Positions 4,500-63,139 of a DNA stretch of 64,000 bases are shown in pieces. The stretch is taken from the IMG/VR virus record IMGVR_UViG_3300037245_004243, positions 1 to 64,000 of that record; one strand, given 5' to 3'. Position 1 is the first letter of the stretch. Every line of letters begins with the position of its first letter. Under the pieces are notes generated by a model. The model was given only the letters and a program-made list of their open reading frames with translations, was not told the origin of the DNA and did no database searches. This stretch comes from an uncultured virus (IMG/VR IMGVR_UViG_3300037245_004243). Taxonomy: Duplodnaviria > Heunggongvirae > Uroviricota > Caudoviricetes. A program made the position numbers and the translations under genes.

Positions 4500-4774
4500 C
4501 GGATTTACTGAAACTGAACTTCTGACCAAATTTGGCAAAAACGCCGGTTACCTGGGAGGCGGTTGTTATGCAGTAAACTTTTTTAATCGAGAATTATTCG
4601 ATACATGCACTCACGAACTTTTCAAGAAATACAAGGCTTGTTTTGTGAAACTGGACGGGAGGTTCTATTACAAATGAAGGATAAAATAGTAATCGCAATC
4701 GCCGTTATGGCCGCTTTCATCATTGCCTTTGTTGGGGAAACATACATCAATTCAATAATGGGGAATTAAATATC

Positions 4775-5062
4775 ATGAAAACTGAAATAATGGGTTGGGC
4801 AGATAATACGGTGTTATCTCTGGAAGAGGAAGATGGCACCGTGATGGTAGCGATTGAGCCGAAGGATGGACAGGCACGATTGTTTCTTGACGAGACCGGG
4901 CAGAAACGTTTGCTTGAATTTCTGTTTAAATCGCTCCCCTTGGAAGTCCTTGTGAAACAGCTATCCGACAGATTCTCAAAGGACTTTGTCAAAGGCCCGA
5001 GCGTTGTGATTCCACTTTATGCTGAGCCAGAGGTGGAAATGGGACCTCACTTTGAAGATTAA
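4775..5062 (+). CDS. Hypothetical protein
   Basis: GGGGA RBS and operon context. Confidence 0.6.
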   Translation: MKTEIMGWADNTVLSLEEEDGTVMVAIEPKDGQARLFLDETGQKRLLEFLFKSLPLEVLVKQLSDRFSKDFVKGPSVVIPLYAEPEVEMGPHFED

Positions 5063-5289: not shown

Positions 5290-5637
5290 ATGAAAATAAT
5301 CGGGATCTGCCGCCTTTTTAAATTGGATTTCAATCTCGCCAAGGGAGTTACAAAATATTGGATCGGGCATATGCCAGCAAGGCGCCAGCCGGTTTTAATA
5401 TTAGCATTCACCCTCACGGTTTTGGCTACCTTTATCAATTGTTATTTTATTGCCTGGGGAGTTGTGCGCCAGAGTGGTATGCCTTCCTGGTTAATTCGGC
5501 CATTATTTTCATATTTTAATAAGGGATATAAAGGGGACAACAGGGACATGGCCCTGGCCATAGCATCTAAAAATTATAAAAGAATGGTTAGCGAAAAAGT
5601 CAGATTAGTAAATATGGTGTATAAAAGCTCCATATAA
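5290..5637 (+). CDS. Hypothetical membrane protein
   Basis: One hydrophobic segment; GAGG RBS. Confidence 0.55.
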   Translation: MKIIGICRLFKLDFNLAKGVTKYWIGHMPARRQPVLILAFTLTVLATFINCYFIAWGVVRQSGMPSWLIRPLFSYFNKGYKGDNRDMALAIASKNYKRMVSEKVRLVNMVYKSSI

Positions 5638-39768: not shown

Positions 39769-42700
39769 TTATTTCCACCAGTGCACCGTGCCGGACACCA
39801 CGGTAAAATTTGTGAATCTTACGGTTGCTGTTGGTTGTGAATCAACATTTGCTACATGTAATGAAATTCGGCCATGTTTGTCATCAAAATCAGTGAATGT
39901 ATATGCGCCCTGTGTTACCCAACCGCTGCCGATATCATAATATTCTGTGATTATATTATTAACCTTTTTAATTCTATACTTTATCCCGGTCAATGTTGAA
40001 TCAGCATCGGTGTCCGTCGTTTTCCATGCTGTATCTTCAATAGCTAAAGATTGAAATTCATGTGCGCCGCCGCCATACCTGCGCCTGGCAATAACACCCG
40101 TGTCCCATAACGGATCATCGGGTTGTCCGATTTGATCTTGAAAAGTCAAAGACACGCACGCCATCCAAGAATTTGTGGCTGGACCTGCCGGAATATCTAA
40201 TTCAATTATTACTTCAAAATCTTCCGTGCTATCCAATTCGAAATTACTTAAAACGCCCTGGCGCTCGAGAGAAACATCACCCGAATCAACCGTGCATTGC
40301 AAATATCCACCGGTCTGTGTAACGTTTGCGGCCTGGCCGATTACTGTCCACCGGTCGGTATTTATTTCCGCGCCGGAAAAATCATCATCAGGTATAATAA
40401 CATCGTATGTCATTAAAGTATCGAACAAGGTATAATAAGTTGCTTTTAACCACGCCGCCGAACGATCGATATCAGAAAGCCTTATTTCCCCAAGTAGACC
40501 CACCATCCTTAAATCAGGAGTTGACCTTCCAGCAGCCGTAAGGGGCACATCAGTATTATCTATGTCGCCTGTATGAGCCGTCGGGCCACTTGCCAAATTC
40601 AATGCGCCGTCAACATATGTCCTAAGATCGATTTTATTGTATACACCAGCAACGTATTGCCAATCTGTGCCAATAATCGAATCGTTACTATGGCAGTTGT
40701 ATAAAGTGGTCGAAGTAAATACGCCAAATGTTATTCTGTCGTTAACACCATTTAAAAATAGATAGTAATTCCTGTTGCCGGGGTCTATATCCCGCGCCAT
40801 GTACATTGTACTGTTGGGAGCACCGGCATCACGTTTTCCAAGTGCCTCCAGGGTAAGTTTGCCAGTAATATCAAGGGAAACGTTATCACCGTAATTCATC
40901 CATTGGGTATTAAAATCCAGTGCCTTTGCACTTTTCACACCATCGACTAAGTCATTAGAAGCCATGCCGTCTTGTGGAGTTCCATCATTACCGAAAGATG
41001 TCGAATCAAGCATACAACCCGCGCCGCCTGAAGGGTCTTGCGCCATATGATGGACTGCTTTAAAATTGCTATCCCATACCGCTTGCGCCGGGGTGTCGCC
41101 GATATCACCGACATAAATATTATCGACAATACTTGCATCATAACGGAAATTAAGTATTGTATCTGATGCCGCCAGAATCGATGGTATTTTTACCCATAAC
41201 GATATTTGTTCATTAATCGAGTCAAAATTTTCAATTTCTATCTTGCATTGGGTACCATCGGCAGTCGTGACCGCTAACTTTTTTCTGTTTGGATGACCGT
41301 TTGGCCATTCAATAGAATCAGCAGTAACAAGCAAATCATCAACAAACCCATAATATGTCCCGGTCGTTTCCTGTTCAAAAAGTAGCTCAATAACAGCGTC
41401 TTCGGTATTGGAATCTTCTACTTCCAAACCGGCTGTCGAACCATTCCATTTCCAATCATCTGTATCCCAATAATAAACCTTGACACTTCCAGAAATCCGT
41501 GTTATTTTAAATTGCCCTATTGAATCATCCATATTGTCCCAAACGAAACCCGATTCAAGCCCATAAGCATAATAACCATTATTACCCGACTTACGGGATC
41601 GCGAAATAAACCCTATTGGTGCATCAGCCAGATTGCGGATTGCAAGCCGGGGCATGTAATGTTGTGCAGAAGTTGGGTCTGAGGACGCAATATTAAAATT
41701 CATTTGGACTTCAAAATCCCCGGAAAGAACAAATTTTGAATCGATAATTGTTTGACGATATCCTGAATTTTGATCAAAATTAAAATATAACGTATTATTT
41801 TGAATTTCTAACTCGCCAGACACGCCACTTATAAAAGTCCAAATTTCACCGTCTTCAACTAAATCACCATCAGCGCCGGTAAAATCGTCACCGGTCCATG
41901 CCAACGCATCAAATACTTCAGTTGTATTCCCGCTTGTAATACCTGAAGCCGTTGAAAGGTTGATCATAACCGGAAAGTCGGTAAGGTCTTCATCAATCTG
42001 TGAACTATCAATCGTAAGTTCAATTTGATTGGCAAAACCCTGGGTATAAGCCGCCGTATTAAAAGTCATCAGGGTATCAAAGCAAGTATGATAAGTTGCC
42101 TTTGCCCAAGCGGCAGACCGCTGTGCTTTTGAATACCGACATTCGAAAACCTTGCCGGTCATAAAATATTCTGATGAATGAAAGACTTGACCATGACCTA
42201 TCTTCAAATCATCTTCAGAATCATCAATACCATTTAAACAGGGTGTTGCAGCGTCAACTCTTGACCAGTCGGTCGGATTTGTATCATTCCAAAAGATATC
42301 AACATCGCTACCATCGCCAGGATAATAAAACCCGAAATAATTTTTTGCATCCACCGCATAATCAGGAACATCTTTTTTATAGTAAGTATAAATACTTAAT
42401 GATTGTTTAAATCCGAAAAGTGGTTCACCACTTCCGTTAACCTGGAATCCCCATCCATTTATATTAGCATCCATCTTATTAAAAATATTTTGATTACTTG
42501 ATGGGGTACCAGTCAATTTAAATACTGTTTCAACTGAAAAATCAGTAAGTAAACTCAAAGCGGCATTATCGACTATATATGCCTTTTCATTTGACCCACC
42601 AAAATTATATGCTATTCCATCTTCATCAATGACCAAGTCGCTGGACTCCATATTAACCACAGTCATATCATGATCATAGGAAGTCGAATCTTTTAATGTT

Positions 42701-45700
42701 CCTAAACTTGGGTCTTGGGCCATGTGGTAAACTGCAACAAAGTCGTCATCCCATACCGCTTGCGCAGAGGCCTCGCCGGTATCACCAACATTAGGATTGT
42801 CGGCATGATCGGAGTCAAAATATAGAAATAATTTAGTGTCGGTCCCCGCCAGAATTTCAGGCACCTTTACCCACAATTCAGCTTTTTCATTTGCATTATC
42901 CCAATGGATGATTTCCACCGGGCATTCACTTAAACCATCAGCACGGGTAACCGCTATCTTTTTACGGTTTGGATGTGTGCCTGGTGCCCATATAAGCGTG
43001 CCGGAATTTACAACAAAATTGTCGATAGTGCCCTGAACGTCTTCACCGCTTTCTTGTTCCCAATAAAACCTAAAATAAACGTCTTCCGTTGAACCCGGTC
43101 CATTATTTGCGACAATTATTCCCGCCGTATTCCCGTCCCATTCCCATTGACCGCCAGCAGTATCAGTCCAATAAAATGATCGTATCACACCGCTAATCCG
43201 AGTTAAACGTAATTTTCCGAAAGCATCAGCAGGGCCTTTATAAGCGCCCCCTTCATTTAAACCATATGCACGGTACTGATTAAGCGACGCACTTCGCACC
43301 CTTGCAATTTGGGCAATATTAACGTCATCGGAAACACGCATAGCTTGAAAAGATGGACAATAATGCGTGCCAGGTGGTTGTGTAAACTGATCGGCGGTAA
43401 AGTCCACGGATACATCGAAATCGCCCGTTGCCTGAAATTTGCCTATAATACGCGCTATTATTTGTGGACTTGCAATAGCCGACGCATCAAATTCGAATTT
43501 ATTATTCTGAATAGAAGTGACAGAATCGTCGTCTTCCACATCCCACAAATCAGTATCCGGTGACGCGCCGTCTTCACCGGTAAAATCGTCACCGGTATAT
43601 GCCAACGCATCAAATACTTCCGTTATATCGCCGTTTCCAATAGCTGAATCAGAAAGATTTATCATAACCGGAAAGTCGGTCAAGTCTTCATCAATATTTG
43701 ACTTATCGATTACAAGTTCAATCCTATTTGCGTAATCGAGAGCGCTGAGCGCATATGTTATCAGCGTATCAAAAAATGTATGATAAGTTGCTTTTAACCA
43801 CGCCGCCGAACGAATCATTTTTGATATTCTTATTTCACCGATTAGACCGTCAAATTCCCTATCACCACCATCCCTAATGCCTATTTTTGTGGTCGCTGGA
43901 GCATCAGAATCCCAAGTGCCAGAAGGTGCGGTCGATTCAACTTGATTACTGCCATCACCATTAAGATAAACTATTGGGTCATTATTAATTGAACTTTTAT
44001 CATGGGTAAACGCGCCATGATACCAGGTGTTTCCATCGGTTATTAATGCATCAGAATTATACCATTGACCGACGCCGCCGCTTGAATCCCTAACAACAAC
44101 AAGGCCGCTTGAATGTACAAGAAATGACCAACCATTGTTTGGTGAAACTGTTTTGTCTACAATTCGCCCGGAATTGTTTTGACCAAGATTATCAGCTTTA
44201 AATACCGATTCAACAGTCATTAAAGCTATATCATCAAGAATGGCGCCACTTCCAGCACTGAAGTATTCATCTGATCCGCTTAAATTCACCGCTTTTATAC
44301 TTTTTAGGCCATCAACTAAGTCTGGAGTGCCTGTGGCATCTGCATCCTGATTGTTGCCAGTACTTTCAGGAATTAAAATTGCATCTGTCATATGGTAAAC
44401 AGTAACAAAGTCAGAATCCCATACCGCTTGCGCCGGGGTGTCGCCGATATCACCAATATAATCTGTATTGTCCGCTTTGGTCGAATCATACAATAAATTT
44501 AAAACTGTATCGGATGCCGCCAATACAGATGGAATTTTTGCATGTAAAGAAGCCGTTTTGGTTGCCGCATTCCAATTGGCTATTTCAACATTATATTCGG
44601 TGTTCCTGCTCGAATTTTGAACCGAAATCTTTTTGCGGTTTGGGTCGGTTGCTGCTGGCCAAATTACATTACCCACCACAACCGCAAAATTGCTTAATTC
44701 AAAAGTCACGTTCACGGCATTCTGCTTACTAATCATGAAATTGACGTGACCATCTTCATTATCGAAATCGGTAAATGAATAGGTTTGTGATAACACCCAA
44801 CCGGACCCGGCATCATAATAGCAACTTATATCATTTCCTATTTTTACCTGTCTAAGTTTACCGGACATGGTCGTATTGACATCGGTATCGGTCGTTTTAA
44901 ATGAACCATCTTCAGCCGCTAATGATTGCCAAACATGACCACCATTACCTGAATTATAACTCCTTCGACTAAAAACTAATGTATCCCAAGCGCCGCCATA
45001 AGGGTCACCGGTTTGTTCTTTAAAATTTACCAACATATCAGCATAAAATGCATTTGTAGAAGGGGCAGTCATGGTAAAATCAACCGTTATTTCATAATCT
45101 TGACTTTGATCAAGTCGAAATTTACTATAACAACCATGTATTTCATTATCTGCACCGCCCGATAGCGCCCTGACCGTTAAGACATTATCTGATACAAACA
45201 CATTGCTGGCAATCCCAAATTTTGTCCAATTATCTAAATTAGAAAAATCATCGCCGGTCCATGCCAGGTCATCAAATAGCGCCGTTAAATCAGCATCATT
45301 AATTCCTGAAGCCGCTGAAAGGTTGATCATAACCGGGAAGTCGGTCAAGTCTTCATCAATCTGTGAACTATCAATCGTTAAAATAATTGGGTTATTAACA
45401 CTTTCAAAAACACTAATGCCCTTGTCAATAGCACTGGTTGCAGCGGTTACTATCGATGGTGAAGACACAAATTCAATTTCTTCTTGGGTACCAATATCAC
45501 TGATCGTGCCGGATACTATCGATGCGCTCGAGCCAAATTCCCTTTGTGCATTAGCATCAGATGAAATATCGGTCCCGATGGAAGGCGAAGATACAAAATA
45601 GGAAGATATTTCAATTATCGCCGTTATATCCGAAACGATATCAGCCTGGGCCGCAAAAGCCCAACCATAGTCAATTGTGCTACTTAAATATCCGGTCTGT

Positions 45701-46416
45701 ATATCAGCCTGGGATGCAAAAATGCGCTCAGCGAGCCCAACGCTAATGATCGAAGTTTGAATGGCCGGGGAAGATGTGGTCCCAACATAATATTCTATAT
45801 TTGGATCGGTAATATCCGAAACGATATCGGCACCGGATGCAAAACGTCCACCGAATATCACATCGCCGGTAATCGAGAATGTAATTGAAGGAGCAGAGAT
45901 AAAATGATATTGGCGCTCAAAATCCGAGCTTATATCCGAGCTAATCGAAGCCGCTGAAACGAAAAGATTTATTTTATAGATATCACCATCGATATCGGAG
46001 GAGATATCGGCCTGTGCCGCCAGCTCGCGCCGCGCATCAGCATCAGAAACAATCGCCGCGCGAATCACAGGTGAAGACACAAATAATTTTTCAGCTCGAA
46101 CGGTAATTTCAGCAATTGTTGAAACTATTGAAGCCGCTGAAACGAAAAGATTTGATTTATAAATATCGGTGTCGGCGCCGGACCCAATAATAGCACTCGA
46201 AGCAAAGTGTCGTTCAGCATTACCCTTGCCAACAATTCCCGTCACGATATTAGGCCGGGAATGAAAGTCTGGAGTTCCCAAACGACTGCTCGAGTTGTCC
46301 CAGGTTATCCTGGCCAAAACCAGAAAGGTACCGGGGCCACACCAGGAAGTTAAATCCTCGGTGATTTCAGTCTCTATGGCATCCCGTTTATAGCTGTTTT
46401 CAGGTATTATTCGCAT
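39769..46416 (-). CDS. 2215-aa modular virion fibre/adhesin with three DUF2341 + LamG-like modules
   Basis: Three IDEDLTDFPVMINLS...AQAVWD...RSAAW.KATY modules and N-terminal ~20-aa repeats. Confidence 0.8.
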   Translation of the reverse strand: MRIIPENSYKRDAIETEITEDLTSWCGPGTFLVLARITWDNSSSRLGTPDFHSRPNIVTGIVGKGNAERHFASSAIIGSGADTDIYKSNLFVSAASIVSTIAEITVRAEKLFVSSPVIRAAIVSDADARRELAAQADISSDIDGDIYKINLFVSAASISSDISSDFERQYHFISAPSITFSITGDVIFGGRFASGADIVSDITDPNIEYYVGTTSSPAIQTSIISVGLAERIFASQADIQTGYLSSTIDYGWAFAAQADIVSDITAIIEISSYFVSSPSIGTDISSDANAQREFGSSASIVSGTISDIGTQEEIEFVSSPSIVTAATSAIDKGISVFESVNNPIILTIDSSQIDEDLTDFPVMINLSAASGINDADLTALFDDLAWTGDDFSNLDNWTKFGIASNVFVSDNVLTVRALSGGADNEIHGCYSKFRLDQSQDYEITVDFTMTAPSTNAFYADMLVNFKEQTGDPYGGAWDTLVFSRRSYNSGNGGHVWQSLAAEDGSFKTTDTDVNTTMSGKLRQVKIGNDISCYYDAGSGWVLSQTYSFTDFDNEDGHVNFMISKQNAVNVTFELSNFAVVVGNVIWPAATDPNRKKISVQNSSRNTEYNVEIANWNAATKTASLHAKIPSVLAASDTVLNLLYDSTKADNTDYIGDIGDTPAQAVWDSDFVTVYHMTDAILIPESTGNNQDADATGTPDLVDGLKSIKAVNLSGSDEYFSAGSGAILDDIALMTVESVFKADNLGQNNSGRIVDKTVSPNNGWSFLVHSSGLVVVRDSSGGVGQWYNSDALITDGNTWYHGAFTHDKSSINNDPIVYLNGDGSNQVESTAPSGTWDSDAPATTKIGIRDGGDREFDGLIGEIRISKMIRSAAWLKATYHTFFDTLITYALSALDYANRIELVIDKSNIDEDLTDFPVMINLSDSAIGNGDITEVFDALAYTGDDFTGEDGASPDTDLWDVEDDDSVTSIQNNKFEFDASAIASPQIIARIIGKFQATGDFDVSVDFTADQFTQPPGTHYCPSFQAMRVSDDVNIAQIARVRSASLNQYRAYGLNEGGAYKGPADAFGKLRLTRISGVIRSFYWTDTAGGQWEWDGNTAGIIVANNGPGSTEDVYFRFYWEQESGEDVQGTIDNFVVNSGTLIWAPGTHPNRKKIAVTRADGLSECPVEIIHWDNANEKAELWVKVPEILAGTDTKLFLYFDSDHADNPNVGDTGEASAQAVWDDDFVAVYHMAQDPSLGTLKDSTSYDHDMTVVNMESSDLVIDEDGIAYNFGGSNEKAYIVDNAALSLLTDFSVETVFKLTGTPSSNQNIFNKMDANINGWGFQVNGSGEPLFGFKQSLSIYTYYKKDVPDYAVDAKNYFGFYYPGDGSDVDIFWNDTNPTDWSRVDAATPCLNGIDDSEDDLKIGHGQVFHSSEYFMTGKVFECRYSKAQRSAAWAKATYHTCFDTLMTFNTAAYTQGFANQIELTIDSSQIDEDLTDFPVMINLSTASGITSGNTTEVFDALAWTGDDFTGADGDLVEDGEIWTFISGVSGELEIQNNTLYFNFDQNSGYRQTIIDSKFVLSGDFEVQMNFNIASSDPTSAQHYMPRLAIRNLADAPIGFISRSRKSGNNGYYAYGLESGFVWDNMDDSIGQFKITRISGSVKVYYWDTDDWKWNGSTAGLEVEDSNTEDAVIELLFEQETTGTYYGFVDDLLVTADSIEWPNGHPNRKKLAVTTADGTQCKIEIENFDSINEQISLWVKIPSILAASDTILNFRYDASIVDNIYVGDIGDTPAQAVWDSNFKAVHHMAQDPSGGAGCMLDSTSFGNDGTPQDGMASNDLVDGVKSAKALDFNTQWMNYGDNVSLDITGKLTLEALGKRDAGAPNSTMYMARDIDPGNRNYYLFLNGVNDRITFGVFTSTTLYNCHSNDSIIGTDWQYVAGVYNKIDLRTYVDGALNLASGPTAHTGDIDNTDVPLTAAGRSTPDLRMVGLLGEIRLSDIDRSAAWLKATYYTLFDTLMTYDVIIPDDDFSGAEINTDRWTVIGQAANVTQTGGYLQCTVDSGDVSLERQGVLSNFELDSTEDFEVIIELDIPAGPATNSWMACVSLTFQDQIGQPDDPLWDTGVIARRRYGGGAHEFQSLAIEDTAWKTTDTDADSTLTGIKYRIKKVNNIITEYYDIGSGWVTQGAYTFTDFDDKHGRISLHVANVDSQPTATVRFTNFTVVSGTVHWWK

Positions 46417-46759: not shown

Positions 46760-47529
46760 TAATTCTCCGTATTGGTCGTTATAACAACATTTACTGACAT
46801 CGCACCATCCGCCTCTCTTTCAAGAGCAGTTATTTCGTTGAAAGTATGATTAATATTTGCAATATCCAGGCACCGGTTGCTGTCATCAGTAAAACGAATA
46901 TTGATAATTTTGATAATGCTCTCGTCTTTGATCGGCGGATAAAGATAACCTTTTATCGTGAAATCAATATCGGCCATAACTGTGCGATCTTCTTCAGGGC
47001 CGAATTCATTTGTAATATCCAGGTTCATCTGGTTCAAAACTATGGATATGTTTCGACGGATTCCTAACTCAGGAATCTCCTCCACAATTAAGGTATAATC
47101 TGGTTTGAAAAAGGTACCGACCTGCTCGATGATTTGCATCATATCATCTGTGTATTCGGTCCAGATAGAAAACTGCACCGAGAAATTATACGGCACCGGG
47201 GTATACATGAAAATTTCCCGGTCACCATCCATTTCAATCGGTATCTCATTTAGCTGTGGCTCTTTCCGGCTCACGTCTGGAGCAAGCGCAGTAATCAGAA
47301 AACTCATCCGAGGCAGTGTCGTGCTGATATGACGGCTTGATGTTCCAGATTCATTTTGCAGCAAATAAAACATTTTCGATTTGCCGACATATGAACACGG
47401 GACGACAATATCCTTGATTATTTTATTGTCTTTATCCCGCCGCAATACATGAACATCTTCAAAAATATGATGGAATGCCACGACATATTTTTTGATCATT
47501 TCCCAATAAAAGTGTTTTTGTGATAACAT
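46759..47529 (-). CDS. 15: Tail sheath stabilizer / completion protein (gp15-like)
   Basis: HFY...IKKYVVAF...F, LPRMSF, D..RK, PVPYN, QI.EQ...F.P and F..KGYLYPP motifs. Confidence 0.9.
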   Translation of the reverse strand: MLSQKHFYWEMIKKYVVAFHHIFEDVHVLRRDKDNKIIKDIVVPCSYVGKSKMFYLLQNESGTSSRHISTTLPRMSFLITALAPDVSRKEPQLNEIPIEMDGDREIFMYTPVPYNFSVQFSIWTEYTDDMMQIIEQVGTFFKPDYTLIVEEIPELGIRRNISIVLNQMNLDITNEFGPEEDRTVMADIDFTIKGYLYPPIKDESIIKIINIRFTDDSNRCLDIANINHTFNEITALEREADGAMSVNVVITTNTEN

Positions 47530-50272: not shown

Positions 50273-51052
50273 TTAAAATGGGCTCCAGCTTTTAAAAGCC
50301 GGATTGGCCACACCGGTCCCGCCTTGGCCATTGGCAAAAATCTTTTTACTATTAGCGGCAAGTGCCTCCTCACTTTCTGCAAATGATGATCCGCCACTTC
50401 CACCGAAAACGGTTTTTATACTGGAAGCAGGGATTTTATTAGATAAGGTTTCAATACCTTCTTTTAGAGCATCGATCCCTGTCCCGATGGTACCCTGGGC
50501 GAGATCAAAAGCAACATCTTTTACATCCGCGACGCTAATTCCTTCATCAAACTCATAAATAATATCATCGTATCGGAAAGAGGTCGAGAGGGTCATAAGT
50601 TGATCGTTTGCATCCGCCGCCAATGCGATATTCTCTATGTTGACCGGGAATGCATCTAAGATGGTACACTTTACCCGCATTAACTGCTTTCGATTCCATA
50701 GTTCAATCTCGATATTGCCGGAATATTCATCCTTATAATTGAAGGTACGCGAGCCATCATTCATTACCAGTTTTCGCCAGTCATTAAAAAACTTGATGAC
50801 TTTTAGGCCATCATCAACGAAAAATTCGAACGCTATTGGATCATAATCAACAGAACTTACATAATGCCGGGGCAGGTTGTTATATTGTACAGAAGTGGTG
50901 TTATAGGTCATAAACGGGAAAGTTGCGGATCTGGTTAAAAACCCGAACTCTTTTGCCCCAAAAAGGTGACCAGTGAAAGTTACTTGATAGAGATTTGGCC
51001 TAAGAAAATCTGAAAACGATGCTTTCAGATTTTCCAGAAACATGGTAGCCAT
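50273..51052 (-). CDS. 54: Tail tube initiator (gp54-like; tube fold)
   Basis: RPNLY.V.F, FF..W...., YKDEY and AFP.NI motifs. Confidence 0.75.
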   Translation of the reverse strand: MATMFLENLKASFSDFLRPNLYQVTFTGHLFGAKEFGFLTRSATFPFMTYNTTSVQYNNLPRHYVSSVDYDPIAFEFFVDDGLKVIKFFNDWRKLVMNDGSRTFNYKDEYSGNIEIELWNRKQLMRVKCTILDAFPVNIENIALAADANDQLMTLSTSFRYDDIIYEFDEGISVADVKDVAFDLAQGTIGTGIDALKEGIETLSNKIPASSIKTVFGGSGGSSFAESEEALAANSKKIFANGQGGTGVANPAFKSWSPF

Positions 51053-51064
51053 AAATTACCTCTT

Positions 51065-51559
51065 TTAGAAAATGCGTGTCCAATAATCGAAACTGAAAGT
51101 AATTACATATTCGGCCAGGGTGTCATTGGTCTCATAGGATAAATCGACCGGGGCGATAGATGATGGCCACATACCAATGAAATTATATTCAGCGATTTCA
51201 TTATCGTTGGTGTCCAATGCAATGATCGTGCCAATGCGTTTATAAAGTGCTGAATCCAGGCCGATAGCTGCTTCATTTGCTTTGATGGTCTGCATCCACT
51301 CTTCGATGGCCGTGCGGACTGCAAAATCGGTATCCATAATGGCGGTCACCGACAGGTCTTCATAGGTCACATCACCGGCAAGTTTGGCTTTCATGCCAAG
51401 ATATGGCGCCTCAACGATGCCGATATTTTTTCCTGGGAGCTGAGCCGCTTTGCACAAGAAAACGAACTTTTCAGGCAATCCCATCACTTCCATTTTATAT
51501 AGGTTTGGCCGGTAACCAGCTTTCAATGCGGCCTTAAAATCTTCAATCCTGATTCCCAT
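51065..51559 (-). CDS. 19: Tail tube protein (gp19)
   Basis: RPNL, CKAA.LPG, AGD.TY, WPS.I..V.LS and F..DYW motifs. Confidence 0.93.
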   Translation of the reverse strand: MGIRIEDFKAALKAGYRPNLYKMEVMGLPEKFVFLCKAAQLPGKNIGIVEAPYLGMKAKLAGDVTYEDLSVTAIMDTDFAVRTAIEEWMQTIKANEAAIGLDSALYKRIGTIIALDTNDNEIAEYNFIGMWPSSIAPVDLSYETNDTLAEYVITFSFDYWTRIF

Positions 51560-58315: not shown

Positions 58316-60012
58316 CGCGGAATCAACCCAAACAAGGAGACCGACATGAACGACGACCATCTTCACAGTAATTGCTACAAAGGAATTTGCTCAGACCTTA
58401 ATTGTAAAGAAGCAGTAAAACAAAACCTGGTCACTGGAAATTGGTTCATTACGATGGGACATGCCGGATTCAATACCGCCACAAATAACCGGAATGGGTA
58501 TGTGAGCGAAAAACGCGCACGAAGCGCCCACATGAATTATACCAAATAAGCGAGAAATGCTAAAAATTATATTCATCGACGCTTAATATAGGAGGTTTAA
58601 AAATGGATTTCGAGAAAATGACAAAGGCGCAAATTATCAGGTCTCTAAATGACAAAACCATTTTAACTACCATCACCGATAATTTTGAGCGCATTTCTTT
58701 CGGCCATATTCAAATGGTAGAAAATATCGGTAAAGCTCTCCTTACTAATCCGAGTCGCTCATTTGAGAAAATCATTAACTCTGCCCTGGACGAATCCGGC
58801 AATCTCGTTATCACCATACCTAAACTTTAGCCGCCACATAACATTAAGCGAGAAATTATGCTAAAAATTATATTCATCGATGCTTTAATCGCATACCTTT
58901 TAATAAACTTTTTGGATTTGACAGGGCTCGCTGCCACCGCCCTTTACTTTGTCTTAACAGCCGGATTCGCCCTGGACGTATACTGCCACATTAGCCGCCA
59001 CATTAGCCGAAATTATTATTGGTATTAACATATTGCCGCCGATAGGCCCACATCCAGGCCACACTCCAAAGGTGTGAAAGCCTGGGGCCATCGGCAAACA
59101 GGAATCCGATGCATAAGCATAAATGGGAAGATAAAAATCCGGCGCCGGGCACAAAGTGGTTCAAGTATTTTGGTTGCTATGATCTGCGCGAATGTCAAAA
59201 GTGTGGTATAATACAGGAAAAGCACTCGGAAACTGATTGGGGCCGGGTAACCGGTTATAGATGGTTTCCATTAGCCGGGAGATGCAAAGGGAGACGAAAT
59301 GATACCTAAAAATTTAAACGATAAATTCATTTGACAAAGGTAGCATCCTGATATATAATGTATTTAATTGGTTAGGAGACTTCATTATGAAAAATAGAGA
59401 GCCGGAAATACATGCCGAGTTAAAGGTACCTTATAGCCCATTTTCTCAAATATACCCATTGCCGGTAGGCACGAAATGTATTATTACAAGTGAAGAGGCC
59501 GACAGATACGCCGTCAAATTTCCTGATGTGATCGGTTATTCAGGCACATTCCACGTCAAAAAATATCAGATTACAGCCCAAAAGTAAACAATTGTGGGAC
59601 TTATGGCCAGATAATTTAAAATAGGGAGATTAAATATCATGAAATGCACATTATGTTTTACAGAAATTGCCGGGATTAATGAAGCAATCGATGCCGATTG
59701 GATTCCTAATTTCTTTGTTGGGGCAACCGAGCATGGCCCGGTTTGTCCATCTTGCCAGCAAAAGTATCTTTGGTTAGATTCAATCGATGGCGAGTTTGAT
59801 TTGTCAACTGAATTTGTGAACATCTTTTTAAAATCAGCATCTTATATGGATTCCGGTTTTAAGGGCAAATCATATATCGGATTTTGTGGGGACATCGAAG
59901 TTTCGGAAAAATGCGAGATATGCACGCCGCAATGTGAAAAAAATGGAATGAAACCGCTTGATGGATATGTAAACACTGCACCGGATTATTCAATTTAAGG
60001 GAGATAAATATC

Positions 60013-60891
60013 ATGGGTAAAATAGGGACATTAGAACAAATTTATGCCAGGAAACAGGCTAAGAAAAGCAAGGAAGCCATTCGGTTGGCGCAAACCATAT
60101 TAGACTCAACCCACAAACACTGCACCGAATTATTGGAAGCAGGGGTAATACCCGACGCAACGCGCCATTATAAGATCGGTGACCGGGTCCGATATGGCGC
60201 CTGGGATTGGAGTGCCGTCCTCGCCGTTTACGAAAACGGGAAATATTATAAGCTGGTCACACAAACTCGCCACATCGGTCGCAATATTCCGGACTCTTCC
60301 GAACTAAGAATTCATTATCTACCTTGGTTTAATTTCGTTTCTTACCAGAGCCCTGAAGAGATTTTTGAAATCGATTCCCTTATCGAGGGCGATGATATAT
60401 TTTTCAGTTATTCCCAACGGGATTTGAGTTCCTTAATAAATATGTATTTCAACAAGCATGGGATTGATTTCGAGCCGGAATATCAACGAGGTAATGTCTG
60501 GTCGCTTGAAAAAAAGGTCGAGCTAATAGATTCTATCTTTAAAAATGTGGATATAGGAAAATTTGCCGTCATCAGCAGACCCTGGGGACCGGACGGCAAC
60601 AAGCCACTCACACCCAAATTGTGGGAGATGCTCGACGGGAAGCAGCGCCTAACGGCCATCATCGATTTTTTTACTAACCAGTTTTCCTATAAAGGTAAAT
60701 ATTACGATGACTTGTCACCGCACGATAGATACCATTTCAAACATTATTCAGCGGCGATTGCCGAAACAGAGAATTTGACCAAGGCACAAAAGTACCGTTA
60801 CTTTTTAAAATTGAATACAACCGGCACACCCCAAGATCCCGAACATATGAAAAAGGTCACCGATATGCTTGCCAAGGAGATGAAAAAATGA
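60013..60891 (+). CDS. DUF262 (ParB/GmrSD N-terminal) domain protein
   Basis: PEYQRG.VW, LIDSI, DGKQRL and F.KLN..G motifs. Confidence 0.88.
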   Translation: MGKIGTLEQIYARKQAKKSKEAIRLAQTILDSTHKHCTELLEAGVIPDATRHYKIGDRVRYGAWDWSAVLAVYENGKYYKLVTQTRHIGRNIPDSSELRIHYLPWFNFVSYQSPEEIFEIDSLIEGDDIFFSYSQRDLSSLINMYFNKHGIDFEPEYQRGNVWSLEKKVELIDSIFKNVDIGKFAVISRPWGPDGNKPLTPKLWEMLDGKQRLTAIIDFFTNQFSYKGKYYDDLSPHDRYHFKHYSAAIAETENLTKAQKYRYFLKLNTTGTPQDPEHMKKVTDMLAKEMKK

Positions 60892-61070
60892 GTGAAGACT
60901 TAGGATTATTTCAAGTAGTATGCCCGGTTTGCTCGCGAGCCTTTGACCTGGATGAAACGGTTATTCAGAAAGTATGGTCTCAATCATTTAAGGAAGGTTT
61001 AAAAGTTATCTGCCCGGCCTGTGGGTGTCAACGATGCTCAGATTTGCCGGATGACGAAGAGGAATAAAAA

Positions 61071-61271
61071 ATGGAAAGACGATCATTTATAAAAATCATT
61101 GCTGGAATTGCAGTCGCGCCATTAAGTTTTTTGAAAGTCGCCGCCGCTTCCACGGTCCCGGTATCAGTTGTTAAGGTCAGAGCTAAACCCCGGTTATTAA
61201 AATGTCGATGGACATTGGAATGTCAAAGGGATTTGGAAGTAATGGGATTGGAGGAAAAAATATGCTGCTGA
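61071..61271 (+). CDS. Tat-signal miniprotein with a gp23-like motif
   Basis: MERRSFIK signal; V.AK.R.LK..WT.E...DL...GL motif. Confidence 0.65.
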   Translation: MERRSFIKIIAGIAVAPLSFLKVAAASTVPVSVVKVRAKPRLLKCRWTLECQRDLEVMGLEEKICC

Positions 61272-61534
61272 AAAGACGATCATTTCTAAAATTTCTCGGT
61301 ATAGTTGCCACTGCTCCCCTGAGTTTAATTCCAACCGCCGCAAAAGAGGCCAGTCGGTTAGGGTTAGATCGGTTAGATCGGTTAATCTATATGCCTGATA
61401 TTAATGGATATGTTTATTGTCCCTATATTCCTTTGACGGTTACTAAAACATACAGGATGGGAAAAACATACAGCATGGGAAGCACCTGGACTGAAGAATT
61501 GGATAAAGATTTACCCAAAATATTTGGAGTTTAA
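61262..61534 (+). CDS. Tat-signal miniprotein with gp23-like motifs
   Basis: KRRSFLK signal; GYVYCPYIPL and WTEEL.KDL motifs; GGAGG RBS. Confidence 0.65.
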   Translation: MLLKRRSFLKFLGIVATAPLSLIPTAAKEASRLGLDRLDRLIYMPDINGYVYCPYIPLTVTKTYRMGKTYSMGSTWTEELDKDLPKIFGV

Positions 61535-61741
61535 ATTGGAAAAATTTATTAGAGAAAACGGGCTGCAGAAACGGAATGGATTAGACGAGTGGTATAGCCG
61601 CGACGGGAAGACCCGGCTTGTTAAATTGGGCGCCCGGTATCGCCTGGATGTCAAAATCAAAAATTGGTCCGCATTTCATTCCGATTATATTATCGGTCAC
61701 CGGGAGCGTGAATTCAAAAGCGTTGTCGGTCGACAACGCTA

Positions 61742-63139
61742 TTAGAATTTTATTTCGGTCCAGGGCTTGATCGTTGTTTTTTCTCTGATGTTTGCGCCAC
61801 CTGTTCGAACGATTTCTTTAAAGAATGCCCGTGTCCATTCGCCAAGCTGACCAACCCGGCCAGCAACCCATTTTCTAAATGCTTCGGCAAATGCCTCAGC
61901 CGGATTTGTATTTCCGTAATCGGTAATAAATTCTAATGTGACACGTTCACCAGAATGTTGCTTTTGCATCCAACCCGTGTATATCGCTAATTTTTTCATA
62001 AACCCGCGCTCGCTATCTTGATTATAATCGTATGAAGCATATTTATCTTGCACACTCCAGATAGGGGTCCGGTCGGCTAAATTTATGAAAACGGTTTTTA
62101 GTGTCGGGTCATCAATATTCGCCCTGGCATCAGCAAGAATGTCTTTCCGCTTCTTGAAATGGCCATATTTAGTATCGAAATATCGATCACAAAATTTCTG
62201 GATCATCTCGTCATTCATATCGATCATGCCGCTATTGATTTTATCTTCCCATGCTTTTTGTGCGCGATTGGGTACCCGCCTGAACCAATATCGATGGCCG
62301 ATTTCATGGACGAGCGTACTGTCATTTAAATTATCGCTCATGCCCAACGGAAAAATATAAAGGGTGTCATCTTCTTTGCGATATGCGCCACCGATCATCC
62401 CGCCGCTTATTCCAGAAACCGTGCTTGGTTTGAAATTGATTTCAACGGTAAAATCTGTTAACGCACTTTTAAGACCGGCCTTTTTTATCGCTCTGACGGC
62501 AACCGGCAAAGATTTTAAAAACTTTTTTATCCATTTTGTGGCGTAATCCGCATGATTAACGTTTTTTACTAAAACATTAACGCCGTGAACATTGACCTGA
62601 TGATCCGGAATGATTTCGCTTATTTTATCCGCTTCATAAACGATTAGCTCATCAATGGCATCGAATGCCGCCTTAAATGCCCTGGTGTATCGGGCAATGT
62701 TTGTTTTTCTTGGATCTGATCCTATGTTGGTGTCTAAAGCCCACGGCGCCCAAAGGTGCTTATCGGTTTTATAATCATAATCCATAGGGAAAAGTGACAT
62801 AATCGAAGTATGTGCCGCCCAACCCTTTTCTCGGACCTTGACCTGATAAATGTTTTCGCCACCTTTTCGGTCGTCGTCATAAGGAAGGTGACTTCGGTCT
62901 AATAATTCATTAAAAACCCACCGCTCCCAATTTGTATTGAATAATTGCCAGGCATTCTTTACCTTCATGAACACCTTCAACGCCCTGTCTGAATCATCAG
63001 TTTTCAGGGACCGATAAAGCTTTGTCATTCGACGCAGATCTTTTTTCCACTGTGTCGCCTTTTTTCTAAAATCGGCAACACGTTTTTCGTAACCCGCGCC
63101 TTCAACTATTTCGGTCCAGGACTTAATCATCGGTATCAT
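61742..63139 (-). CDS. Zincin-like metallopeptidase, probably head-internal
   Basis: LVHEIGH and Y...N..EAFAEAF motifs; N-terminal MIKSWTEIVE leader. Confidence 0.7.
   Translation of the reverse strand: MIPMIKSWTEIVEGAGYEKRVADFRKKATQWKKDLRRMTKLYRSLKTDDSDRALKVFMKVKNAWQLFNTNWERWVFNELLDRSHLPYDDDRKGGENIYQVKVREKGWAAHTSIMSLFPMDYDYKTDKHLWAPWALDTNIGSDPRKTNIARYTRAFKAAFDAIDELIVYEADKISEIIPDHQVNVHGVNVLVKNVNHADYATKWIKKFLKSLPVAVRAIKKAGLKSALTDFTVEINFKPSTVSGISGGMIGGAYRKEDDTLYIFPLGMSDNLNDSTLVHEIGHRYWFRRVPNRAQKAWEDKINSGMIDMNDEMIQKFCDRYFDTKYGHFKKRKDILADARANIDDPTLKTVFINLADRTPIWSVQDKYASYDYNQDSERGFMKKLAIYTGWMQKQHSGERVTLEFITDYGNTNPAEAFAEAFRKWVAGRVGQLGEWTRAFFKEIVRTGGANIREKTTIKPWTEIKF

Follow-up and report, generated by a model that had tools for sequence, protein, structure and literature searches.

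Tandem miniproteins joining Tat-type signals to major-capsid-protein motifs in an operon of an uncultured T4-like phage

The genome of an uncultured T4-like phage (IMG/VR IMGVR_UViG_3300037245_004243) contains two genes, here mini1 and mini2, that are tandem duplicates and encode miniproteins in which a Tat-type signal is followed by short stretches (motifs A and B) homologous to segments of gp23, the major capsid protein of the same phage. With ~44 small relatives (62-104 aa) from metagenomes and viral contigs they make up a family that had not been described before; neither miniproteins with capsid motifs nor capsid mimics with Tat signals came up in a search of the literature (main texts), which is not proof of absence. 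Both genes are probably expressed early, as the promoter heading their operon suggests, and we put at roughly 30% the probability that their products act as early, Tat-targeted mimics of unassembled capsid protein and serve as decoys for a capsid-sensing host defence.

The source record (G000) is a linear genome of 129.5 kb and ~74% completeness, of which the window, the whole stretch analysed here, is the first 64 kb. PHROG scans assign the phage to the T4-type myoviruses. In the window the plus strand carries genes for DNA polymerase, ribonucleotide reductase, clamp and clamp loader, RegA and ligase, together with a gp32-type SSB, a gp59-type loader and a Dda-like helicase, and the minus strand carries both terminase subunits, the sheath, two tube paralogues, a hub protein and a sheath stabiliser. 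The tube paralogues (164 and 259 aa; 50273-51559, minus strand) lie side by side and both match PHROG 45. A 2215-aa ORF (39769-46416, minus strand) adjoins the small terminase gene and has no PHROG match at E <= 1e-5. The phage's gp23 gene is located outside the window (G000:92004-93365, minus strand) and its product is only ~34% identical to those of the nearest cultured phages, which are T4-like cyanophages; four short IMG/VR contigs encode gp23 proteins 69-80% identical to it. The T4 late promoter sequence, TATAAATA, is not enriched (5 sites against 4.9 expected).

The miniprotein genes are part of a tightly packed plus-strand operon (Table 1). The promoter at its head is of the sigma-70 type. 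The one sequencing run listed as containing the locus is of DNA, none of RNA being listed. Homologues of the four upstream genes occur in identical order in a viral contig, L008, syntenic with window 59.6-64 kb. In L008 the place of the two miniproteins is taken by one, P0007, which is followed on its 3′ side by a homologue of the operon's last gene. The GmrSD_N/DUF262-type protein lacks the nuclease half and is kept in L008. The convergent 465-aa gene beyond the terminator-like hairpin (61742-63139, minus strand) contains an HExxH motif (LVHEIGHRYW), its product has only a weak match to a PHROG peptidase (E 0.0068), and no relative of it was found in the viral contigs searched.

Table 1. Features of the miniprotein operon and of a third capsid-motif ORF. 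Positions are those of the window except where G000 is named.
Feature	Position	Strand	Basis or remark
Promoter, sigma-70-type, TTGACA-17-TATAAT, 12/12	59331..59359	+	Consensus match only; heads miniprotein operon
66-aa ORF, upstream in operon	59387-59587	+	
119-aa Cys-rich ORF, upstream in operon	59639-59998	+	
292-aa GmrSD_N/DUF262-type protein, upstream in operon	60013-60891	+	Pfam E 7e-17
59-aa zinc-ribbon ORF, upstream in operon	60888-61067	+	ATGA overlap at 60888
mini1, 66 aa, Tat-type signal then capsid motif A	61071..61271	+	ORF; called as gene by two sources
mini1 signal, aa 1-26: ME-RRSFIK, 13 uncharged residues IIAGIAVAPLSFL, K-VAAA then S	61071..61148	+	Pfam TAT_signal, motif statistics
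mini1 motif A, aa 31-57, VSVVKVRAKPRLLKCRWTLECQRDLEV	61161..61241	+	Aligns to own gp23 230-254
mini2, 90 aa, Tat-type signal then motifs B and A joined by a repeat linker	61262..61534	+	Start overlaps mini1 end
mini2 signal, aa 1-27: MLLK-RRSFLK, 17 uncharged residues FLGIVATAPLSLIPTAA, K (then EAS)	61262..61342	+	Pfam TAT_signal
mini2 second in-frame repeat, 9-bp	61362-61384	+	
mini2 motif B, GYVYCPYIPLTVTKTY	61406..61453	+	Aligns to own gp23 401-416
mini2 18-bp in-frame tandem repeat KTYRMG/KTYSMG, linker between motifs B and A	61445..61481	+	
mini2 motif A, KTYSMGSTWTEELDKDLPKI	61463..61522	+	Aligns to own gp23 238-257
Operon's last gene, ~70 aa, TTG start after GGAG	61536..61745	+	Homologue 3′ of miniprotein in L008
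Palindromic hairpin + T-run, terminator-like on both strands	61719..61773	.	Between operon and convergent 465-aa gene
mini3, 56 aa, outside window	G000:C1:122952-123122	+	Best non-self gp23 match in genome

Mini1 reads MERRSFIKIIAGIAVAPLSFLKVAAAS...VRAKPRLLKCRWTLECQRDLEVMGLEEKICC; mini2 opens with MLLKRRSFLKFLGIVATAPLSLIPTAAKEAS, holds GYVYCPYIPL and closes with WTEELDKDLPKIFGV. The best start of mini2 is the ATG at 61262, which is preceded by a GGAGGA Shine-Dalgarno sequence and resembles the starts of its relatives. In mini2 motif B precedes motif A, the reverse of gp23, where B is in the C-terminal part and A in the middle. An earlier note on this DNA, made from the letters alone, had placed the pair at 61071-61534, described their N-termini as paralogous and Tat-like, and set them on the early strand far from the head genes. 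All of this holds: the N-termini share RRSFIK and RRSFLK, mini1 and mini2 match one another by BLASTP (E 4e-7), and the operon is on the strand of the replication genes, 31 kb from gp23. Since L008 carries the single P0007 (signal, B, A), the pair would have arisen by local duplication, with motif B lost from mini1.

Tat signals have an uncharged h-region of ~12-20 residues and a c-region of small residues (AxA), often with a basic residue. In the six frames of the 129.5-kb record mini1 and mini2 are the only two ORFs that fit a regular expression for Tat-like N-termini. Their E-RRSFIK and K-RRSFLK conform to the pattern Z-R-R-x-Phi-Phi, and the uncharged runs and the residues after them have the lengths and composition of h- and c-regions (13 residues then K-VAAA-S in mini1, 17 then K-EAS in mini2). 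The Pfam profile TAT_signal (PF10518) matches mini1 (E 0.001, 19.3 bits) and mini2 (E 0.023, 15.1 bits), both below its cut-off of 22.7; TIGR01409 has no match to mini2 at E <= 0.1, and neither protein reaches the curated PF10518 or TIGR01409 cut-offs. No TatA gene was found in G000. The miniproteins resemble bacterial Tat substrates in the R-R-S-F-L-K consensus, the uncharged run and the usually basic first charged residue after it, and differ from them in being phage-encoded and having tiny passengers without a cofactor domain or confident fold. From these features both are predicted to be exported by the Tat pathway. MKRRSFLK/MNRRGFLS-type signals also occur ahead of unrelated passengers in other contigs (L009 1064-1240, L010 3246-3500, and L105 and L106 from 5001), and small Tat-signal proteins may be a broader phage theme.

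The stretches called motifs A and B are homologous to gp23 segments. In the Smith-Waterman ranking of 2327 stop-to-stop frames of at least 30 aa from the 129.5-kb genome against gp23, the top three non-self scores are those of mini3 (69), mini1 (57) and mini2 (52), and the observed scores were reached by 0/2000, 0/2000 and 2/2000 shuffles for mini3, mini1 and mini2; the chance that both Tat-like ORFs fall by accident in the top three of 2326 frames is ~1e-6 by arithmetic. A tblastn search of the same genome with gp23 has mini3 as its best non-self match (122958-123011, E 0.007), with mini1 at 61161-61235 (E 0.18) and mini2 at 61463-61522 (E 0.70) and 61406-61453 (E 0.92, tied with two other matches). 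The Pfam profile Gp23 (PF07068) matches mini1 at profile positions 133-164 (E 0.015, 15.2 bits) and mini2 at 316-331 (E 0.5, 10.1 bits), both below the cut-off of 24.4, and the two matches taken in order are collinear with the 376-position profile. PHROG 138 (major head protein) also matches mini1 (E 0.026). Between profiles, hhalign of 12 motif-A miniproteins against 23 capsid proteins gives a probability of 95.8% (E 7.9e-9) over 37 columns. In a control, six-frame Gp23 searches of five reference genomes (T4, HTVC008M, Syn19, KVP40 and P-SSM2) matched only full-size gp23/gp24, and none of the five has a short secondary match at E <= 1. The earlier note had recognised gp23 motifs of the AKxRxLKxxWTxExxxDL and GYxYxPYIPL kinds in the two proteins, and alignment bears this out both for the phage's own gp23 (Smith-Waterman ranks 2 and 3; tblastn) and for profiles (hhalign; Pfam below its cut-off).

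Identical residues in the aligned segments share identical codons in only 4/11, 4/10 and 2/9 cases; since the codons are mostly different, the likeness is kept at the protein level and does not reflect a recent DNA copy. Residues W246, E249, D253, L254, G401, Y404, P406, Y407, I408 and P409 of gp23 are invariant in 23 capsid proteins, and the miniproteins have motifs A and B of the gp23 P domain with these invariant residues in common with T4-type gp23. They are unlike gp23 (~450-520 aa) in being 62-104 aa long, in having a Tat signal, in their early operon and in motifs that can be reordered. Mini1 and mini2 are fragments and not members of the Gp23 family (PF07068), lacking its whole-protein score and fold coverage; because only 16-32 of the 376 profile positions are present, the miniproteins cannot have an HK97 fold. 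Because the capsid proteins behind the HMM used to map motifs across the family had been selected for having motif B in its Cys form, that HMM overscores motif B by construction; Pfam and hhalign are free of that bias. The Cys that replaces Ala in both motifs raised the idea of a periplasmic disulfide staple, which was dropped, a Cys in motif B being normal for many full-length capsid proteins: capsid genes account for ~60 of 70 IMG/VR loci with GY[IVM]YCPYIP, and the gp23 of a 79%-identical relative has this form too. An origin of the N-terminal RR region from the RRV.P..L motif of gp23 was rejected too, the capsid HMM aligning nothing there.

A search for the same architecture in other phages recovered the wider family. 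With mini2 as query, phmmer against 1.84 billion representatives gave five matches at E <= 0.001, namely mini2 itself, two long repeat proteins and the miniproteins P0006 (88 aa) and P0007 (76 aa), the two small homologues having E values of 2e-7 and 1e-4. A four-sequence profile extended these to 20 small proteins, and a 20-sequence profile to 46 among 752 candidates (E <= 0.01), from which P0048 and P0049 were set aside as ends or fragments of true capsid genes. Among the first 20 members, matches at E <= 0.1 were found to Pfam Gp23 in 15 (best 6.8e-9), TAT_signal in 11 (best 2.2e-5) and TIGR01409 in four; PHROG 138 matches nine of the 20, and PHROG 13936, a 43-position family of unknown function, five. 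The ESM Atlas neighbours nearest to mini2 are two hypothetical-protein clusters (0.92, recorded as viral, and 0.90), followed by Tat-signal proteins (0.84-0.89).

Signals were tabulated for 50 sequences (48 database proteins, one from contig L082 and mini3), and the Tat regular expression is fitted by 40 of them; without the capsid-gene fragments P0048 and P0049 the tally is 40 of 48. The ten that do not fit are P0014, P0017, P0024, P0033, P0044, P0048, P0049, P0051, P0052 and mini3; P0024 and P0051 appear N-terminally cut. The 40 fitting sequences have F at +3 in 39 cases and K at +5 in 31, neither being demanded by the regular expression, and an uncharged run with a median of 14 residues, after which the first charged residue is basic in 28. 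Their consensus, (M)(K/N)-R-R-S-F-L-K, agrees with the published Tat consensus S/T-R-R-x-F-L-K, as given in PMC13673990.

By alignment, the passengers are mosaics in which all pieces come from gp23 P-domain elements. Some consist of B alone, often with a preceding GYKG, and others of A alone (mini1, P0011, P0012, P0024, P0042); the two are combined as B then A (mini2, P0007, P0014, P0017, P0033) or as A then B (P0029, P0051 and the member in contig L104). Motif B is followed by the spine helix in P0035 and P0045, by the P loop and next strand in P0027, P0032, P0037, P0041 and P0046, and by a Gol-region motif in P0019. Linkers vary among members, those in the window containing in-frame tandem repeats. 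Outside the capsid-invariant residues, which are what the passengers conserve, members are only 26-45% identical.

This conservation bears on the idea that the miniproteins have a periplasmic or membrane function unrelated to the capsid, such as superinfection exclusion or lysis timing, with the gp23-like stretches being captured raw material that is retained because it forms beta-strands or helices in a general way. T4-type phages commonly encode small proteins with signals, and the miniproteins of L009, L010, L105 and L106 have the MKRRSFLK-type signal with passengers of other kinds, as this idea would allow. However, what is conserved in the family's passengers is the set of capsid-invariant residues, and the motifs recur in various orders and fusions, as if they themselves were under selection. 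Mini1 and mini2 have no Pfam or PHROG match at E <= 1 to lysis or exclusion proteins, T4 RI-type antiholin, Imm and Sp-like families included. We consider a capsid-unrelated function unlikely.

Family members occupy five different insertion contexts in T4-like genomes. Besides the L008 orthologue, one member lies between SbcD- and SbcC-like genes and adjoins a membrane protein (L103), another ~1.2 kb downstream of the gene for the head maturation protease, flanked by a dehydrogenase and a GTP-binding-like gene (L104, with the same neighbours in L081), and another beside a MazG-type hydrolase and a thymidylate-synthase-like gene (L082, a 137-kb contig). Taken together, these contexts show the pattern of an accessory gene that is mobile among T4-like genomes. 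Among cultured phages none was found to carry a family member: tblastn against 50,697 cultured phage records gave no match to mini1 and four to mini2, at chance level, and the L082 member matches only the capsid genes of 1229 records, through motif B. A word search with mini2 returned nothing beyond itself, and searches of viral contigs with mini1 and the operon neighbours returned only themselves. A narrow DNA pattern for signal plus motif B is present at two loci in metagenome contigs and at none in 185,579 species genomes.

The third capsid-motif ORF of this genome, mini3, matches Pfam Gp23 (E 0.1); its opening, MRYFGPTNLDSGMYYAPYPP, shares 61% identity with gp23 392-409 across 18 residues. 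It has a hydrophobic C-terminal tail and no Tat signal, and its start overlaps the stop of an upstream 179-aa gene (ATGA). Small ORFs without a Tat signal and with a single gp23 motif are also found in the large IMG/VR contigs G004 (4724-4888, 5400-5549, 156733-156831), G003 (589-732, 47168-47245) and G002 (1031-1102); the motif in these is the Gol region, A or B, with Pfam Gp23 E values down to 7.6e-15. Capsid-motif mini-ORFs thus seem to be a wider set than the Tat branch.

Such signal-less ORFs, and the bias of HMM detection towards conserved columns, are what would be expected if the miniproteins were decaying, functionless remnants of a second gp23/gp24 copy that is now visible only at the motifs. 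Yet mini1 and mini2 have intact frames, Shine-Dalgarno sites and operon packing; both carry the conserved Tat motif, which is absent from gp23; motif order is reversed in mini2; and there are ~44 relatives of like design, with an orthologue at the same place in L008. The collinear order, broken frames and lack of added functional parts that mark pseudogenes are not seen in the pair, and decay of this kind is very improbable.

Alignment places motif A at T4 gp23 258-287, which is the basic P-domain strand and the start of the spine helix, and motif B at 437-457 (447-462 for the mini2 segment), a strand of the P-domain sheet that leads into the P loop; the Gol-type motif corresponds to ~93-128. 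In PMC9546572, the head-length mutations A268V, A275T, D285V, D287V/N, T457A, R460C and G461S cluster at the quasi-threefold axes, where P loops link the capsomers, as do charge contacts that pair a short acidic P-domain helix with a basic P-domain strand; the portal whisker is bound by H282 and M284 together with M98; and changes in gp23 bypass the gp31 co-chaperonin. Motif A includes the head-length sites A268, A275, D285 and D287 and the portal-whisker ligands H282 and M284, and motif B includes the gp31-bypass site A455 and runs into T457, R460 and G461. On this mapping, what the miniproteins copy is the gp23 region whose folding is assisted by chaperonin and which makes the inter-capsomer anchor contacts. 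AlphaFold models built with family alignments have low confidence (mean pLDDT 61.9 in mini2, 69.7 in the relative P0014), with helices at 75-88 in mini2 and at 36-49 and 54-81 in P0014, unpaired strands and no compact fold; the first helix in both begins at the W-T of motif A. These models fit peptides that fold on a partner, and prove nothing.

The earlier note had proposed decoys for capsid sensors or modulators of membrane-associated prohead assembly, and the quasi-threefold P-domain mapping fits a decoy and a modulator of assembly alike. As an assembly modulator or tether, the peptides would bind capsomer edges, portal or scaffold, so that early assembly is held at the membrane near the Tat receptor, or capsomers are capped, with head assembly or head length tuned or delayed. 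Several observations would suit such a role, among them the inter-capsomer, head-length, gp31-bypass and portal-whisker residues to which motifs A and B map, the start of T4 prohead assembly at a membrane-bound portal (PMC9546572), the position of the L104 member near the head maturation protease gene, and a search of G000 (74% complete) for a Cpn10/gp31-type co-chaperonin, which found none. However, the operon has a host-type early promoter on the replication-gene strand, far from gp23, and the family is absent from 5/5 reference T4-like phages; a core assembly factor would not be expected to have such a promoter or so patchy and mosaic a distribution. The architecture is also too variable for a core morphogenetic factor, some members having only A and some only B, and a Tat passenger normally leaves the cytoplasm. 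On balance a role in assembly is rather unlikely.

The decoy reading is ranked first because of the early timing suggested by the promoter, the accessory and mosaic evolution, and the retention of only invariant residues. Each miniprotein would consist of a Tat signal peptide and a short, largely unstructured peptide that is a cut-down gp23 P domain. This peptide would mimic the edge of an unassembled capsid subunit, its invariant residues engaging whatever recognises that surface, and the likeliest partner would be a host defence protein that senses capsid protein. Made early, the mimic would occupy the sensor before gp23 appears, and, through the Tat signal, the complex would stay at the membrane or leave the cytoplasm. 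An arms-race pattern of accessory genes is consistent with a decoy, with five insertion contexts, absence from the five references and in-frame linker repeats, as is the evidence that these are real genes (tight operon, Shine-Dalgarno sites, overlapping stops and starts, 12/12 promoter, terminator hairpin and independent gene calls).

A precedent for a short, highly conserved gp23 piece that has its own activity and is a target of host immunity (PMC3014915) is the Gol peptide, a 29-residue internal segment of T4 gp23 that binds EF-Tu and activates the Lit protease. The Gol region itself is carried by P0019 and by signal-less ORFs in G002-G004. Unlike Gol, the miniproteins are separate genes, and mini1 and mini2 carry motifs A and B and not the Gol region; moreover, Gol triggers defence whereas a miniprotein decoy would block it. 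The proposal also resembles phage mimics and decoys against defence such as Ocr, a DNA mimic, and DSAD1, which acts against DSR2, these being small early proteins for which occupation of a host sensor has been proposed or shown. The known phage decoys are, to our knowledge, not pieces of the phage's own structural protein and have no export signal.

The main difficulty for the decoy reading is that a Tat signal should take the mimic to the periplasm, away from cytoplasmic sensors, and the predicted export therefore argues against a simple cytoplasmic decoy. In addition, a peptide that contains a trigger epitope might activate a sensor instead of blocking it; no capsid-sensing system is known for the host of this phage; the motifs are core P-domain elements, partly buried, which a sensor of folded gp23 need not see; and mini1 and mini2 are below the Pfam cut-offs for both TAT_signal and Gp23. 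The difficulty of direction would be resolved if the mimic exploited the capacity, unique to the Tat pathway, for moving folded complexes: it would bind a cytoplasmic protein that recognises unassembled gp23, whether a host sensor or a rival phage's capsid subunit, and drag it as a hitchhiker to the translocon, to jam there or be expelled. Expulsion would also explain why a Tat and not a Sec signal is conserved beside the capsid motifs. Hitchhiker co-export is referenced in PMC13673990; for the miniproteins we regard it as quite improbable.

The same pieces could instead be aimed at other phages, as early dominant-negative capsid fragments that poison folding or capsomer joining in a co- or superinfecting T4-like competitor; alternatively, competitor subunits would be carried to the Tat translocon. 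In either case export would clear the peptides ahead of the late synthesis of gp23 by the phage itself. The miniproteins retain nothing but residues that do not vary among T4-like capsid proteins, the promoter suggests early timing, and the gene is mobile and patchily distributed, all of which would suit a weapon between phages. The phage's own gp23 shares those invariant residues, however, so that timing alone would have to prevent self-poisoning. We know of no precedent for a capsid piece used in this way, and such a weapon is an unlikely explanation.

Whatever their function, the miniproteins form a family of ~44 members in T4-like phages of environmental samples, with a clear and searchable design. 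If the decoy reading is true, the parts of the capsid protein that vary least serve phages as a source of small proteins, made early and directed to the membrane or periplasm, and these self-derived mimics would form a class of their own, new to science. It would then become possible to test the conserved gp23 motifs as surfaces for immunity, chaperones and capsomer joining, and to study natural peptides aimed at the assembly or the sensing of capsids. The Tat pathway would be tied to phage-host or phage-phage conflict.
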